Source of the DNA: Plasmodiophora brassicae | Taxonomy: Eukaryota | Assembly (NCBI GenBank): GCA_036867785.1 | Contig: CP145420.1 | Location: forward strand, 1,054,001-1,118,000 | DNA length: 64,000 nucleotides | Reading direction: 5' to 3' | Shown here: piece after piece, positions 44,505-53,514 of the stretch | Numbering within the stretch: the first letter of the stretch is position 1 | How the letters are laid out: each line of letters opens with the position of its first letter | Notes under the pieces: model-generated | Database searches by the model: none | Told to the model about the DNA's origin: nothing | Seen by the model: the letters and a program-made list of their open reading frames with translations, nothing else | Position numbers and translations under genes: made by a program

Positions 44505-44685
44505 AGTCGCGCGATCGGACCAGGCCAATCGATCGAATCGAGATCCCCATGAGGTGTCTCCTCCGTGCGTGGACTGCAGACGCGCCGGTGGGCTGCGCGC
44601 CGTTCGTGTTTTGTGCGCGCGGAACGATCGACTGGCAGAGAGTGCGGGAGCAAAGTGGGTACTTGGTGCTTGGTCGGCGGTTGAG

Positions 44686-45699
44686 ATGCGCGTGGAGCCG
44701 TTGCATGGTGGTCACCTCGACGACGTCGTGGTGGTTGCGGGTGACGATGACGACGACGGCGACGGGGTGCCGATCGACCGCATCCTGGCGGGGCGTCCGT
44801 TTCGGGTCGCGCGCCTGCTCATGGATGACGTGGCGGTGATGTCGCCGGGCCAGGTCGACCTCGTCCTGCACTGCCGGTGCCGCTGGCTCAGCCTGCAGCG
44901 ATGCGCATCGCTGACGGCGGGGTTGATGGCCGATCTGGAGCCGGCGTTCGCCCGCCTGCATCACCTGGACCTGTCGGGGAATTCCGCCCGGGAGCACCTC
45001 GACGTCGTCGTCATCGCGCGAGTTCTCCCTCGCCTCACCGAGCTGATCCTCGAGGGATGCGACCTGGTCAGCGACGACGTCGTCGTCCTCGCCGACGCCA
45101 TGCGGGTCGACCCGCGTCGGATGCGACTCCTGAACCTGTCGGCGAACGCCGGCCTGGGCGACGAAGGCCTCCAGGCGCTCTGCGCTGGACTGGAAGGGCA
45201 TGCGAACCTGGCCGATCTGTCGTTGGCGGACTGTGGCCTGACGGCCGCCGGCGCGTCCCTCCTGTCCGACGCCCTGGCCACGCTGCCCGATCTCCAGTCG
45301 CTGAACCTGGAGTTCAACGTCGTTGGCGACGACGCCGTCGCCCGCCTGATGAACGTCATGGCACAGACGGGGACCGTGCGGTCGGTGAACGTCGCCCAGT
45401 GCGGGTGCGATCCGATAAAGGTGGTCGAGGCGGCCGCCGCCGTCCCCACCATCGTCGACCTGGTCTGCGATGGGGCACCGGCGCCGGCGGTCGCATCCGT
45501 CGTCGAGAGGCATCGCGCGGCGTGCTCGGAAGCCGCCAAACTGATCTTCCTGGCGTCGCGCCCGGCCAGAACGCTCCTGTGCAACCCGAGCTTCGATCGG
45601 GAACTGCTCAACCTGATCTTCGACCTGGCCCTGCCCGCGTCCGACGCCGACCGTCGTCGTCGCCGGGGACGGCAACGACACCAGTTGTGCCAGTGCTGA
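44686..45699 (+). CDS. RNI-like leucine-rich repeat protein
   Basis: LHHLDLSGN, LTELILEGCDL, LLNLSAN, LADLSLADCGL, LQSLNLEFNVVGD. Confidence 0.85.
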   Translation: MRVEPLHGGHLDDVVVVAGDDDDDGDGVPIDRILAGRPFRVARLLMDDVAVMSPGQVDLVLHCRCRWLSLQRCASLTAGLMADLEPAFARLHHLDLSGNSAREHLDVVVIARVLPRLTELILEGCDLVSDDVVVLADAMRVDPRRMRLLNLSANAGLGDEGLQALCAGLEGHANLADLSLADCGLTAAGASLLSDALATLPDLQSLNLEFNVVGDDAVARLMNVMAQTGTVRSVNVAQCGCDPIKVVEAAAAVPTIVDLVCDGAPAPAVASVVERHRAACSEAAKLIFLASRPARTLLCNPSFDRELLNLIFDLALPASDADRRRRRGRQRHQLCQC

Positions 45700-45726
45700 G
45701 TGGACGGCACGACCCCCTGTCGTACT

Positions 45727-47210
45727 TTATAGGACGATGGGATTCCGATGGGACCCGCCGTCGCGGTCGACGTCGATCTGGTTTGCCATGGCGCTGACGA
45801 TCACGTCGGCCAGGCGTCGTCGTCGCTCGCTTGGGAAGCCGCCGGGTTTATCCGCCGTGTACATCCTGAAATCCACCGACACGTACGACAGCCCTGCGTC
45901 GAGCGCGACGTTCTCGAACAGCCTGGTCTCGAAAGCGTAATCTGCCAGCGAACCGGGTCAGGGTAATGCGCGCGTGCGTCTCGTCGCTGGGTGATAGGCG
46001 ATGGACCTGTTCGCAGCTCCACCAGGGCGGCGCCATCGCGCGCGTAAAGCGCGTTGACGAGCCCTGCCCCGTGTGTTCCCAGGACGCAGGAGGCGTCCTG
46101 CATGATCTCCAGCAGGCCGACGATGTCGTCGAACTGGTCGCCGCCGCTGATGACGGTGACGTCGAGGTGCCTCGCCTGCAGGTCTCCGACGAACGCCTCG
46201 AAGTCGGCCTGCGCCATGGCCCGGCCGCCGCCTCCGGTCCTGTGGAAGAACACGACACGGTTCGAGCGGTCCGCTGGCCGCTTCGGACGATACAACTGAC
46301 GAACGTAGCGCTGCCACCTGTGGGCGAATTCGTACCAGTACGGGGCGGGCGCCAGCGCGTCGATCTCGAACCAGGACCGGTAGAACGGCTGCGGGCCGTA
46401 TCCCCAGACGAGGTGGTCGAGGCAGACGGTCCGCTGGTCCCTGGGCATCCCCCGAATCGTGCCGAACATGCGCGCCTTGGTGTCGTGCAGGACGGCCAGC
46501 TCGGGCCGGTCAGACGGGATCTCGAACAGCGTGCAATTCGGCAGCAGCGGCACGACGCCGAGGCGGTCGGCCTGCCAGAACAGGGGCAGCAGGTTGTCGT
46601 TGTGCGCGTGGAACGCGTTGTTGGCCACCCAGACGCTCGACAGGAACGACGTGCCGCGCACGTGTTCGTCGCAGAACGACGGCGGGTCCCAGGGGCGCGC
46701 GTCCGCATGGAACCGCTGCTGGAGGTCGACAATGCCGCCGTTCAGGAAGGCTCGGTACCTGGGCGATTGCGCTGGTCGATTAGCGCCGCCGGGCGCCTGG
46801 CCACACCGCCCGCTGTCACCGACTTGTACGCCTGCGGCTCGATGTCGCGGACGATCGTGCTGTTCGCCTGGCCGAAGAAGACGATGTGGCCCCGGTGGAA
46901 GGCTACGCGTCTGAATTCGAACCACTGAGGGGCGCTCTCCAGGCAGTAGGCGTCGCCGGCACAGTCGCCTGCGTGCATGGCCTGGATGGCGGGCGCCTCT
47001 GACGGCGCCACCACCGGTCTACAGGACGCCGCCAGGGGAACGTCGGCAACCGCGGGTACAGGACGACGGCAACGCTGCGCCGACGTACCTCGTCAGCGGC
47101 GGCGGATCGCGTACCAGGCGGGTAATGACGCGCGATTGCATGACCAGCGACGCGATTGATATAGCGAGGACGACTACAAGGCCCCAGGTGATCGACGACC
47201 TCGGCACCAT
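45727..47210 (-). CDS. glycosyltransferase family 61 (DUF563), type II membrane
   Basis: N-terminal TM; NAFHAHND, VVFFHR, ASCVLGTHGAGLVNALY..AALVEL; last exon LFENVA..GLSY. About 3 introns. Confidence 0.82.
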
Positions 47211-47503
47211 CGTCGAGAGCAACTGTAGATCGTGGTGTACCCTGCACTAGTCTACCGTATTGTACAGAATGTCGTATGTACCCGTCAGGATGTTGTACGC
47301 GGGCTTTTGACCCACCACGGAATGCGTGAAATTGCCGACGCGGACCGCCAATGGCCGCCACCCATTTGCTTGTCGTCATGATTGTGAGCAAAGTGAGGCG
47401 CCATCATGCGTGCCCCAACACGCGTTGGCATTGTCTTCATTGATATTATTTGCGGGGCGTTTCGCGGGCGCAGTTGGCGTTTAGTTACGGTAAAGCGCGC
47501 TCC

Positions 47504-47853
47504 ACGATATTACGGGGGCACTGCGCGGCCAGAGACCGACTGACTCTCCCCTGGGCGGATGGTGTCTCCAACAGCCTCCATTACGCTTGAGGCAGTGCTG
47601 ACCATTTCATTAAGCTGTTCCAGCTGCACGGGGTGGAGATGAATGGCCGATTGCAAGGTCTCAGCCGACTGTTTGACTAGATCAAGCCAGCTCCACCCCA
47701 TCCAGCTGGATAAGCCTAATGGAACGGTCAGCACTGCCCCAAGCGTAATGGGGGCTGTTGAAGACAGGATACGACCGCCAGTGATGGGAATGACAAGCGG
47801 TCGAGTCCGGTAACGGGGTTATATCGTCCTACCGACGGGAACCCGCAGGCAGG
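47504..47853 (-). ncRNA. candidate structured RNA / fold-back element (unclassified)
   Basis: 76-nt inverted arms at 47563-47638 and 47691-47766 (66/76 complementary, no indels), plus outer and apical helices. Mismatches favour G-U pairs on the minus strand. Confidence 0.5.
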
Positions 47854-48019
47854 CCGGCGCCACTAGACAACGACCGACCCGGGTCTGCTGAATCGCCGCT
47901 CCACGCGCGGCACACGGTCCAGATCAGACGGCGCGACCATCACCACGAACCGAGGGGACGGGCACTGCACGGCGGTACTGTGTATATATACAACGCGCGC
48001 GTGCACGAGGTCGCCACCC

Positions 48020-48655
48020 CTACGTCTTCACGAGTTTCATGCCGAACATGGCGTTGGCGTAGCTGTAGACGATGCTGCACAGGGTCGTGCCGCTGGGCTG
48101 GCTGCCGATCGTCGGCAGGCCGCGCCCGCTGCTGATGCGTTCCGGGAGCCACCGGGCGCTGACGCTGGAATGCCGATACGAGACGCCCGTATCGGGCAGC
48201 CGGGTCGGTGGGCCCAGGTCCGGCTCGGGGCACTCGGCGAAGCTGTCGGGGCGCAGCACGGCGTAGGCGATGACAACGGACCCGGCTTCCATCAGGATCC
48301 GGTCCTGGTCCTCGGGCGACGGGATGGCGCCGTCCCGCCGCGACGGCGCCAGGATATGGACGACGGGGTCGGGCGCGATCGGATCGCCCTCGGGCGCGCT
48401 GCCCTTGTCATCGTGCAGCGAGCACGCCGACACGTACTCGCTGTGCGGCCCGCTGCCCTGCATCAGGATGACATTGTAGAACGCCTCGGTGTGCACCTTG
48501 CCCTTCTTGTCGACGGACGCCCCGGACCGGCGGATGCGCCGCATGAACTCCTTCGACAGCGGCGTGAAGCACCCGGTCGGCCGCGTCACGTCCGGCCCCG
48601 GCGCTGCTGCCGTCCGCGCCCACCTCCTACACACGGCCTGCGACACGCGATACAT
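48020..48655 (-). CDS. hypothetical protein, possible mitochondrial presequence
   Basis: ATG 48655 (MYRVSQAVCRRWARTAAA) followed by an open, GC3-rich frame to 48020. Confidence 0.55.
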   Translation of the reverse strand: MYRVSQAVCRRWARTAAAPGPDVTRPTGCFTPLSKEFMRRIRRSGASVDKKGKVHTEAFYNVILMQGSGPHSEYVSACSLHDDKGSAPEGDPIAPDPVVHILAPSRRDGAIPSPEDQDRILMEAGSVVIAYAVLRPDSFAECPEPDLGPPTRLPDTGVSYRHSSVSARWLPERISSGRGLPTIGSQPSGTTLCSIVYSYANAMFGMKLVKT

Positions 48656-48994
48656 GGCAGGCAGGCCGTCGGTCGCGATTCGCACAACGATCGCTCGGAC
48701 CGCTCGCGGACGCGCAGGTCTACCAATGTAGAGGTGCGCACGCACGCCGCACCCTGCGCGCCGCTGCCCTACATGCGTACAGGTAGGTTGTCCATGCCCG
48801 GACGGGCCTTGCGGGTCCCGCCCACGTTGCTCTGCTGCGATTCCTGGCCTGGGACGGGTGCGCTCCCCGGGTGGTGCTCCCCGGGTGCGGCGTGACTTAC
48901 GTTGCACGGGCGTCGGATCCAGCCGTTGTCGGAGCCCGGCCCCGTCGTATCGGACTGGGCAACCGGTACGGGCAAGGGTAGTCAGTGGCCGGCG

Positions 48995-49877: not shown

Positions 49878-52035
49878 ATGGTCGACGGCCGCATCGATGG
49901 CGTCCGCCTCGCCCTGCTCGTCGTCGTCGTCGTCGTCAGTGTCGCTCGACCCGTGGGCGCCGTCCTGCTGCGCTCCAGCGATGGCGTTGTGCACCGGGTG
50001 GACAGTGCGGTCGCCATCGCCCACTGCGACCTGCTGGGCGCCCTGGTCGGCGCGGGCGACGACGACGTCGTCGTCCACCTGCCCACCGTCGACAATACCG
50101 AGTTACAGCTGATCGTGGAGTTCCTCACCGACGTCGACGAGGCCTGCTGCGGCGACCGGGTGGGTGTTTGTGCCCCCTGGCGCTTGCGACGAACGATGCA
50201 CTGACTCGATGGAACGACAGGTCGACCGGGCCGCCCGGTGGGCCCACCAGCACCGCCTGCTCGGACAGGCGAGCGACGAGCACACGCAGCGACGCCTGCT
50301 GTCGGCGGCACACTACCTCGGCATGCAGGCGCTCGTCGCCGCGATCGTATCGACGCGGGCCAACTGGGCGGCCGCCTCCGAGTCCTGGCACGTGCAACGC
50401 CAGGTGATGCGAGCGAACGTCCCCGGGATCATGACGCGGCTCGCCCGGGCCGCCGCCGGCGAACGTCAGCGCGCGGTCGTCAAGCGGGTCTACGACGTCG
50501 TCGCGGGGGCGACCGGGGACGCGTCACCCGTCGACGTCAACGACGCCGAGTGGTTCCAGGGCGGCACCGTCCTGCACTGGGCCGCCTGGCACGGCGAGGA
50601 GTCGATCGTCGCCCTGCTGCTCGACGTCGCCGGCGTCGACGTGGACGCGCGCAGCCAGCTGGAGCGCGAGACGCCCCTGCACTGGGCCGCCCTGACGCCG
50701 CATCGCTCGCCGGGCGTCGTCGACCTGCTGCTCGCCGCGCCCGGCGTCGACGTGAACGCGCGCAACGACCGCAACGAGACGCCCCTGCACCTGGCCGCCC
50801 GGCATGGGCGCGACGACGTCGTCCGGGTGCTGCTGGCCAGCGACCGGGTCGACGTGAACGCGCGCGACGCCCACCTGATGACCGCCCTGCACTGGGCCGT
50901 CACGCACGGCAGCGACGCCGTCGTCGACCTGCTGCTGGGCGTGCCCGACGTCGACGTGAACGCGCGCGACGGCCGCACCCGCACGCCCCTGCACGACGCC
51001 ATGCGCCTGGGGCGGCACGGCGTCGTGCAGCGCCTGCTGGACGCGCCCGGCATCGCCGTCGACCAGCACGGCGCCGACCTCGGCACGACCCCGCTGCACT
51101 GGGCCGTCGCCCACGCCGACGACCGCGTCGTCGCCGCCCTGCTGGCGCGGGCACGAGGCGATGTCGTCGTCAGCGCGCGCGACCGCACCGCCAGGACGCC
51201 GCTGCACGTCGCCGTGCGGCTCCGGCGCGATCGCGTCGTCCAGATGCTGCTCGAGGCGCGTCGTCGTCGCCCTGCGCTGGGCGGCGGCGGCGGCGGCTGC
51301 CTGGGCCTGGGCGGGTTCGACGACGACGACGACGACGACGCGGACGTCGACGTCAACGCGCTGGACGACGACGGCCTGGCGCCGCTGCACTGGGCCGTCC
51401 TGGACGGCACCGACGCCGCCGTCGCGCTGCTGCTGGCGGCGCCCGGCATCGACGTGAACGCGCGCGACGGGCGGCAACGCGCGACGCCGCTGCACTACGC
51501 GGCGTCGGGCGGGCGCGCCCGGGCCACCCGCCTGCTGCTGGCGGCGGTCGGCGTCGACGCCCGGGCGCGCACCCGCGACGGCAGCACGCCGCTGCACGAG
51601 GCGGCCGCCGCCGGCTGCCCCCACGTCGTCCGGCTGCTGCTGCTGGCGGCGGTGGCCCGCGGCGTCGACGTGAACGCGCGCGACGACGACGACCGGCGCA
51701 CGCCGCTGCACGTGGCCGTGCAGCACGGCCACGCCGACGTCGTCGTCGTGCTGCTGGCGGCGGCCGCGGCACCCGGCGGCGGCGTCAACGTGAACGCGCG
51801 CGACCGCTGCGGGCGAACGCCGCTGGATTGGGCGGCGGCCGGCCGCCGCGCCGCCATCGTCCAGGCGCTCGTGCTGGCGCCCGGGATCGTCGTCAACGCC
51901 GCCGTGAGGACGGGGCGTCGACGACATCGCTGCTGCACTCGGACGTCGCCGTCGTTGGAGGCGATCGCGTGTTGTGGAACGCCGCGCGATCGTCCAGGTC
52001 GTCAGGGCAGCGAGTCGGCGCCGCGATTCGACTGA
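49878..52035 (+). CDS. secreted SKP1/BTB-like + ankyrin-repeat protein (copy 4)
   Basis: LALLVVVVVVSVARPVGA signal, then VLLRSSDGVVHRVDSAVAIAHC, an intron at 50160-50220, and about 12 ankyrin repeats interrupted by a poly-G/poly-D insert. Confidence 0.88.
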
Positions 52036-52303
52036 TCGACGACGAGCGTTGCATTATAAACCGGGGTCAGCCGGGGGTGCCGGCGGTGACGTCGTGGCCG
52101 CCCATCTGCACGTCGCTCCGCGTGTTGATCGACGATAGCGTTCTGCAGGGCGGCTATAATGCAGGGTTCACGCGAAGGAGCGCAGACACGTCGCCGCGCT
52201 CGTCTGATCGGCGCCGGAAATGGGATCGTGCTGTACGTGGCGGCGTCCGAGGAGGCAGGCCCGCATTCTGCAGAGGTTTTCGCCGTCTATACGTCGTCGC
52301 GAC

Positions 52304-53514
52304 ATGGACCGCGCTCGCCTCGCGTCACCGTTCGCGCTTATCGTGGTCGTCGTTCTGGCCGGTGCTCGGACGGACGCTGTCGCGCTCCGGTCCAGCGATG
52401 GCGTCGTGCACCATGTGGCCACGTCCGATGCTGTCGCCCAGTCCGGACTGCTGAACAGGTTGCTCGGCGTGATCGGCGAGGACGACCTGGTCCCCTTGTC
52501 GGCGGTCGGTAATTCCGAGCTGCGCCTGATCGTCGAGTTCGTCAACGCGACGGCCAGGCATGATCAGGTAGGGCGGGCGTGACGTGACGTACGATCTGAT
52601 CCGCCGATCGACAATCACTGACGTCTGGACAGAGCGACTTCGCCGCCGCCGCCGCCCGATGGGTCCGTCGTCGGCTTTCAGGGGCAGGACCCGACGCGCA
52701 ATGCCGATTCCTGACAGCGGCCGATTACCTCGACATGCGTTCGCTGATGGTGGCCATCGCGTCCACGAAGCGCACCTGGGGTGATGTCGTCGCGATGCGC
52801 GAGGAGATGCTGTCGCCGAATGCGCATCGTTTCGTCGTGGACAACGCCCCGGGCGTCGTCCGGCTCGGCCAGGTCGCGTCCACGAACAGCCAGCAGGAGC
52901 TGGTCGAGCGGATTCGACATCACCTCGCCGCCGGCGACGGCGGTGGCGACATCGCCTTCGTCAACAGTGTACGATGGAATCGCCTCGGGAACGTTCTGCA
53001 TTGGGCCGCCTCGCAAGGCGAGGATCTGATTGCTGAGTTGCTGTTAAGCGCGCCCGACATCGACGTCAACGCGCGATGCACCAAGTCTTTCGGCACGCCG
53101 GTGTCCGGCAACACATTCCTGCACCTGGCGGCGAAGTCGGGACATGCTAACGTCGTGCGCCTACTGCTGAAGGTCCCCGGTATCGACGTCAATACTCGCG
53201 ACGGCTCGGGGATGACCGCCCTGCACTGGGCAGTGGTGAACGCAAGCCGTCGTGTCGTTGCCCTGTTGCTGGAGGCACCTGGCATCGATGTTAACGCCCG
53301 CGAGCTCCGGTTCCGATGGACGCCGCTGCACTGGGCCTGCGAACTTGGCCTCGTTCCCATCGTCGGGTTGCTGCTGAACGCCCCTGACATCGATGTCAAC
53401 CTTGCCGATTGTCAGACCATGCTGTATGCATCATGGTCTGGGCATAACGGCATTGTCGAACTGCTGCAGAACGCGACGACGTCCTGCACGACGCCGGAAC
53501 CATACCATTCGTAG
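52304..53514 (+). CDS. secreted SKP1/BTB-like + ankyrin-repeat protein (copy 5)
   Basis: FALIVVVVLAGARTDA signal, then VALRSSDGVVHHV..AVAQSGLL, an intron at 52568-52632, and about 5 ankyrin repeats. Confidence 0.87.

Follow-up and report, generated by a model that had tools for sequence, protein, structure and literature searches.

Several kinds of hairpin that yield small RNAs have been described. A typical miRNA stem yields a single duplex. By criteria of the ShortStack type, the miRNA lies in the stem, at most five duplex positions are unpaired and there is no large asymmetric bulge. Animal hpRNA loci, which produce endogenous siRNAs, and the long-hairpin miRNAs of Chlamydomonas usually have stems of hundreds of base pairs and release many siRNAs. 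miRNA hairpins may also derive from MITEs, in which case TIR-like arms surround a short spacer. Finally, young plant MIRNA genes are said, in the work of Allen et al. in 2004 and in later work, to be long near-perfect fold-backs that originate from inverted duplication.

The small RNAs of the rhizarian Plasmodiophora brassicae were published in September 2026 (Zhang et al. 2026, Adv Sci, PMC13547706); all statements made here about that article and its tables refer to the portion of it that was available. A total of 234 miRNAs were annotated from small-RNA sequencing. Among the small RNAs of this species, 90.3% are 21 nt long; they are phased, with an offset of 2 nt between the strands, and most begin with C. 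Two AGO proteins and no Dicer are reported for the genome, and biogenesis requires a Drosha-like RNase III, PbDRL. There is also no RdRP in P. brassicae, so that double-stranded RNA has to come from fold-backs or from convergent transcription. Validation by northern blot and RT-qPCR concerns miR002, miR041 and miR045 only, and PbDRL dependence, AGO loading and target silencing are documented for the pathway and for these same three miRNAs only. The miRNAs were called with ShortStack (strand_cutoff 0.5, foldsize 1000, dicermin 18, dicermax 38). With settings as lax as these, the label 'miRNA' could also have been given to a hairpin-siRNA locus or to one with reads on the two strands. Table S8 of the same article gives sequences for mature RNAs only and lists precursors as locations; its entry for Pb-miR081 has a precursor at Ctg_5:505450-505657 (208 nt) and the mature sequence CUGGAUAAGCCUAAUGGAACG.

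We describe here a fold-back detected in the window, by which we mean the whole 64-kb stretch of P. brassicae DNA that was analyzed. This fold-back is very probably the precursor hairpin of Pb-miR081. As far as the available part of the article goes, it is already catalogued as a small-RNA precursor and is not a new kind of RNA. Coordinates of the locus and of its neighbors are collected in Table 1.

Table 1. Features of the fold-back locus and surrounding genes (window coordinates)
Feature	Position	Strand	Evidence and remarks
LRR-protein gene A	44686..45699	+	GC3 periodicity; Pfam LRR_6, E 5.6e-7; first in-frame ATG 44686
GT61 gene, 4 exons	45727..47210	-	Pfam PF04577; ATG 47210, 294 nt from 47504
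Core fold-back, very probable Pb-miR081 precursor hairpin	47553..47776	+	89-nt imperfect arms, 46-nt spacer
5' arm, main stem	47563..47638	+	MFE helix begins with 47563 paired to 47766
Predicted miR081* (5p, 2-nt 3' overhangs)	47605..47625	+	Derived from the MFE pair table
Terminal loop region	47639..47690	+	Small hairpins not above chance
3' arm, main stem	47691..47766	+	Inverted-repeat search and base-by-base arm comparison
Mature Pb-miR081, 21 nt, 5' C	47706..47726	+	21/21 match to the Table S8 sequence (available part of PMC13547706), in the 3' arm
Gene B, 211-aa ORF	48020..48655	-	GC3 periodicity 0.80-0.95; stop codon 167 nt from 47853
Further gene	from ~48896	+	Third-position GC periodicity

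Geometry and folding of the fold-back

A search for inverted repeats with arms of 30 nt or more returned 19 cases in the 64-kb window, among which the fold-back is the only long one. Its arms (47553-47641 and 47688-47776) measure 89 nt each, are 83% complementary, with 15 mismatches, and are separated by 46 nt. The remaining 18 repeats have arms of 30-55 nt with 70-79% complementarity; by reading, they are mostly GC-rich and several contain GAC/GTC runs. The original prediction, made from the letters of the sequence, had delimited shorter arms of 76 nt inside this repeat, and our base-by-base comparison reproduces them: 66 of the 76 positions are complementary, with 10 mismatches and no indels. 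The description of the differences was likewise exact, seven of the ten being transitions, from which five G-U pairs result when the minus strand folds and two when the plus strand does.

The meaning first attached to these G-U pairs does not hold. The 5:2 asymmetry had been taken to designate the minus strand as the selected one; it is not significant (two-sided binomial p = 0.45, hand calculation), and the mature RNA catalogued in the available Table S8 is on the plus strand. The two arms differ by 13-17%, and a transition to transversion ratio of 7:3 is the neutral-decay expectation for two copies. With such a neutral-looking substitution pattern, selection on the hairpin structure is unsupported.

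That the region folds far better than chance was confirmed on both strands. Over the whole 350-nt stretch initially considered (47504-47853), the folding energy is -187.9 kcal/mol on the plus strand (z = -12.2) and -203.2 kcal/mol on the minus strand (z = -13.9), a level reached in 0 of 100 shuffles in each case. When the 224-nt core is folded by itself, the plus strand reaches -137.8 kcal/mol (z = -15.2, 0 of 200 shuffles) and the minus-strand fold is again the more stable, at -150.9 kcal/mol.

The structure as first proposed was wider than this core: a rod of 350 nt, extended by interrupted outer pairing (ACGATAT with ATATCGT, among others) and ending in a fork of two small loop hairpins. 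We evaluated the outer pairing by holding the core fixed and shuffling the flanks with conservation of dinucleotides (n = 200). At z = -0.7, with 48 of 200 shuffles equally good, the plus-strand pairing is at chance level; on the minus strand it is marginal (z = -2.0, 7 of 200 equally good). The loop fork is no different from chance either, with z = -0.04 on the plus strand and -1.2 on the minus strand in folds of the loop only (1000 shuffles). Since outer pairing and loop hairpins are at chance level, the real feature is the core of about 204-224 nt rather than a forked rod of 350 nt.

A separate small hairpin had also been pointed out at 47828-47853, with a preference for the minus strand. 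This holds in part: the minus-strand fold is marginal (z = -3.2, 6 of 1000 shuffles), and the plus-strand fold is not distinguished from shuffles (z = -1.5). The hairpin is GC-rich, has a folding energy of -15.1 kcal/mol on the minus strand and is placed between the miRNA hairpin and the stop codon of gene B. Chance may account for it, as its site was chosen after the fact.

Correspondence with Pb-miR081

The mature sequence given for Pb-miR081 in Table S8 occurs letter for letter at one site in the window, in the 3' arm of the fold-back. No other site is found on either strand of the window at up to three mismatches, and 0 of 100 shuffles gave any match. The precursor size listed in Table S8, 208 nt, agrees with the 204-224 nt of the core. 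Furthermore, the neighboring entry of the same table, Pb-miR080 (Ctg_5:501985-502302), is found at 51000-51021 on the plus strand of the window, at a distance and in an order that fit Pb-miR081. Both precursor loci are accommodated by one collinear, reverse-oriented mapping, c = K - w, where our arithmetic puts K in the range 553176-553302. The GT61 protein encoded next to the fold-back, which NCBI names for P. brassicae, agrees with this identification. The exact positions of the two mature RNAs and their fit to one reverse mapping argue that the window is reversed relative to contig 5 and that the fold-back is the published locus. In the available Table S8, Pb-miR081 bears no a/b/c suffix such as would denote paralogues.

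The idea of a small-RNA precursor, cut by an RNase III, thus receives support from the mature Pb-miR081 found in the 3' arm. The claim that the locus was new does not survive, as Pb-miR081 was already in print in September 2026 (PMC13547706). Nor does the proposal of a Dicer substrate in the strict sense: the available part of that article reports no Dicer homologue in P. brassicae, and the Drosha-like PbDRL takes its place. Among the papers listed by a further literature search on Plasmodiophora miRNA-like RNAs, judged by titles and the beginnings of abstracts, none dealt with the pathogen's own miRNAs.

The neighboring Pb-miR080 presents a different picture. This 22-nt RNA matches the window exactly, within the second-ranked local inverted repeat (50989-51032 and 51200-51243), and its hairpin is weak, with 44-nt arms that are 77% complementary and 167 nt apart. 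It lies inside an open frame of the plus strand (50238-52454) with a third-position GC content of about 0.9 and no Pfam family. Pb-miR080 resembles a GC-rich small RNA derived from an exon and may be a doubtful miRNA call. In Table S9 of PMC13547706, 185 predicted targets are listed for miR080, compared with 12 rows for miR079, 5 for miR082 and 73 for miR083; the available table has no row for miR081.

Duplex anatomy and register of the mature RNA

In the MFE fold, Pb-miR081 lies wholly within the stem and is paired with 47603-47623. Inside the duplex, positions 47711, 47712 and 47716 are unpaired, a single G-U pair is present and asymmetric bulges are absent; a further unpaired position, 47725, belongs to the 2-nt overhang. 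With three unpaired positions and one G-U pair, all symmetric, in a core whose z-score is -15.2, the duplex stays within the ShortStack-type limits for a miRNA hairpin. The segment used is nonetheless the most mismatched 21-nt segment of its arm, 5 of its 21 positions being non-Watson-Crick.

The position of Pb-miR081 along the stem is also informative. The stem base, 47563/47766, had been defined in the original prediction independently of the miRNA, and the MFE fold agrees with it. When a 2-nt 3' overhang is added at this base and the 3' arm is divided into 21-nt steps, the successive registers are 47748-47768, 47727-47747 and 47706-47726. Pb-miR081 coincides exactly with the third register, for which the chance expectation is about 1 in 21. 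Considering the phased 21-mers of both arms, two of the eight start with C, and Pb-miR081 is one of these two.

Gene neighborhood

The 350-nt stretch is located between two tandem genes of the minus strand: in their reading direction it occupies the interval 167-516 nt beyond the gene B stop codon, which is 294-643 nt ahead of the ATG of a GT61 gene. GC content in this gap is 55-58%, against 67-75% in the flanks. We mapped the GT61 exons by placing back on the window an NCBI protein of 427 aa that bears the name Glycosyltransferase 61 catalytic domain-containing protein [Plasmodiophora brassicae]; our 305-aa query is 100% identical to this protein over the aligned 78%. The four exons, in the direction of the minus strand, are 47210-47089, 47018-46824, 46758-46007 and 45941-45727, and they are separated by GT..AG introns at 47088-47019 (70 nt), 46823-46759 (65 nt) and 46006-45942 (65 nt). 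On the strand of the mature miRNA, the nearest upstream gene is the LRR gene A. No Pfam family was found for gene B or for the gene labelled C, and a metagenome scan with gene B matched 112 pattern stretches, of which 0 were confirmed by tblastn.

A minus-strand frame of 102 codons (47510-47818) overlaps the fold-back and was considered as a coding exon. We rejected it: GC content by codon position is flat (0.49/0.59/0.59), compared with 0.9 at third positions nearby. This frame also has no Pfam family at E<=0.1.

Contigs from sequencing runs over the locus

In the DNA run X2, a single unbroken contig of 18,839 nt passes through the hairpin. The X2 bins covering 47113-47916 carry the depth of this contig alone, which implies that no other contig of at least 95% likeness maps there. 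The hairpin is also bridged by contigs of two runs whose RNA origin is a guess and whose strand is not given, X14 (44637-47696 and 47669-48729) and X16 (44649-48695). From the LRR gene A through GT61 and the hairpin to gene B, these contigs follow the genome as a single collinear block and keep all three GT61 introns. Being collinear through all of these introns, they are not mature GT61 mRNA and constitute no proof of transcription; they may represent antisense (plus-strand) RNA, unspliced RNA or intron retention, or DNA carry-over.

Run X19 does hold RNA, as seen from one spliced joint (50158/50220, GT..AG), and its contigs keep GT61 introns 3 and 1 despite splicing of the intron 50158-50220. 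Among the X19 contigs listed, 47386-47636 and 47757-47952 are covered and 47637-47756 is without cover, which proves nothing. None of the sequence differences listed for runs X2, X14, X16 and X19 falls in the hairpin. Contig starts cluster in three runs at 44637-44649, with the first in-frame ATG of the LRR gene 37-49 nt downstream, and the X16 contig ends at 48695, where Illumina adapter letters follow. Both positions look like sharp transcript ends: gene B, on the minus strand, would start at 48695, and gene A, on the plus strand, at 44637-44649.

Alternative readings of the locus

The same biology might deserve a different label. At a hairpin-siRNA (hpRNA) locus, phased 21-nt duplexes would be released, possibly from both strands, and Pb-miR081 would be the most abundant product only. 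The stem, at 76-89 bp, has room for four 21-nt duplexes, both strands fold well, the hairpin sits between genes of the opposite strand, and an organism devoid of RdRP depends on fold-backs or convergent transcription for its double-stranded RNA; the ShortStack settings of PMC13547706, with a strand_cutoff of 0.5 and a dicermax of 38, could also let such a locus pass. However, ShortStack called a hairpin miRNA here, and the available tables of that article place the locus in neither of the siRNA classes: Table S6 (phasiRNA-like) has no Ctg_5 entry between 488960 and 574037, the nearest loci being 487560-488960 and 574037-574991, and Table S7 (hc-siRNA) has none between 415106 and 1034020. Neither table thus holds a phasiRNA-like or hc-siRNA-like locus in the part of contig 5 covered by the window. 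We regard an hpRNA locus as quite unlikely, and it remains the main alternative label. In another reading the locus plays no part in silencing and the 21-mer is a breakdown product; the fold-back would then be left over from a MITE or fold-back transposon, or be a local inverted duplication in decay. This would account for the long TIR-like arms, their 13-17% difference and the neutral 7:3 ratio. TIR elements are present in the P. brassicae genome (Table S5, PMC13547706), and the lack of predicted targets for miR081 in the available Table S9 is compatible with this reading as well. The decayed MITE had itself been named as an alternative in the original prediction, and it fits poorly with what we found: the fold-back is single-copy in the 64-kb window, no other X2 contig maps to 47113-47916 at 95% likeness or above, and the arm core retrieves 0 loci among metagenome contigs. 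Nor did any of 625 border pairs give a convincing target-site duplication; the best was the 5-nt GATGG, with asymmetric borders. Moreover, the length of the 21-mer, its 5' C and its exact register from the stem base are those expected of RNase III products in this species, going by the available description of its small RNAs. A relic of this kind is very unlikely.

Two further readings were weighed. In one, the minus strand would encode a structured non-coding RNA acting as a whole molecule, such as an SRP-like rod. The greater stability of the minus-strand fold (-203.2 vs -187.9 kcal/mol), the five G-U pairs against two and the minus-strand hairpin at 47828-47853 (z = -3.2) all point in this direction, but the outer pairing and loop fork that would make up the rod are at chance level, the G-U bias has a p-value of 0.45, and the sole product catalogued in the available tables is a 21-mer from the other strand. 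The likeness to SRP RNA finds no echo in Rfam: a cmscan of 46800-48600 on both strands with all 4227 families, those of RNase P/MRP and the snRNAs included, at E<=10, gave nothing on the hairpin and only two weak bacterial-sRNA matches, at 46949-47066. We deem such an RNA highly improbable. In the other, the repeat would act as DNA between the tandem minus-strand genes, as a cruciform, a terminator or insulator, or an element of the GT61 promoter. A gap of lower GC content (55-58% vs 67-75%) between the stop codon of gene B and the start codon of GT61 would suit this role; however, nothing links the repeat to transcription control, and this role would leave unexplained why the 21-nt RNA catalogued in the available Table S8 fits the register of the stem exactly. 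This makes a DNA-level element scarcely credible.

Proposed biogenesis and significance

Taking the fold-back as the precursor of Pb-miR081, we may outline its processing from the known pathway. A plus-strand transcript, antisense to both flanking minus-strand genes, would fold back on itself, giving an imperfect stem some 76-89 bp long. PbDRL would then cut this stem at its base (47563/47768) and subsequently every 21 nt, and the 3p strand of the third duplex, which begins with C, would be retained by PbAGO1/2. A local inverted duplication may have given rise to Pb-miR081, which would then be a young miRNA under weak constraint.

A more daring hypothesis concerns the origin of the transcript. 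The hairpin might be carried by a plus-strand transcript initiated at the LRR promoter (around 44640) and running antisense across GT61, with the 21-nt RNA acting in cis or on host transcripts. Such read-through would explain why the bridging contigs keep all three GT61 introns. Any transcript of the minus strand that crosses the gap between gene B and GT61 would pair perfectly with the 21-nt RNA, which would thus act in cis; as no endogenous target is predicted for miR081, host transcripts could also be targets. The whole scheme is distinctly doubtful. If true, it would couple the expression of one gene to the production of a 21-nt RNA in an organism that has no RdRP.

The locus opens no long-standing question. 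Its interest lies in that a site spotted from raw sequence turns out to be one independently catalogued by small-RNA sequencing, in a crop pathogen, the agent of clubroot, with an unusual Dicer-less RNAi pathway. To the published table we add the placement of the hairpin opposite two tandem genes, between the gene B stop and the GT61 start, the exact 21-nt register of the mature RNA with the stem base, the observation that miR081 has no predicted target, and the conclusion that neither the wider 350-nt structure nor the G-U strand bias is meaningful.

Comparison with known systems

Young plant MIRNA genes offer a parallel outside P. brassicae: the locus shares with them a long imperfect stem with several possible phased 21-nt duplexes, a single copy, arms that are 83-87% complementary and a neutral-looking pattern of divergence. 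It differs in that the window shows no gene similar to the arms that could be their parent or target, nor is one predicted in the available part of PMC13547706, and in that processing in P. brassicae is by a Drosha-like RNase III, with no Dicer, according to the same source. With animal hpRNA loci and the long-hairpin miRNAs of Chlamydomonas it has in common a genomic inverted repeat that would give intramolecular double-stranded RNA, presumably diced in phase; in contrast to these, the stem here is of 76-89 bp and one product is catalogued in the available tables. MITE-derived miRNA hairpins resemble it in their TIR-like arms, short spacer and total length of about 220 nt; unlike these, the fold-back has no second copy in the window, in X2 or in metagenome contigs, and no target-site duplication. 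The closest described system is the Pb-miR081 locus itself, as far as it can be compared from the available part of PMC13547706: the mature 21-mer is identical, the size and the neighbor Pb-miR080 agree, and the only difference is the reversed orientation of the window.
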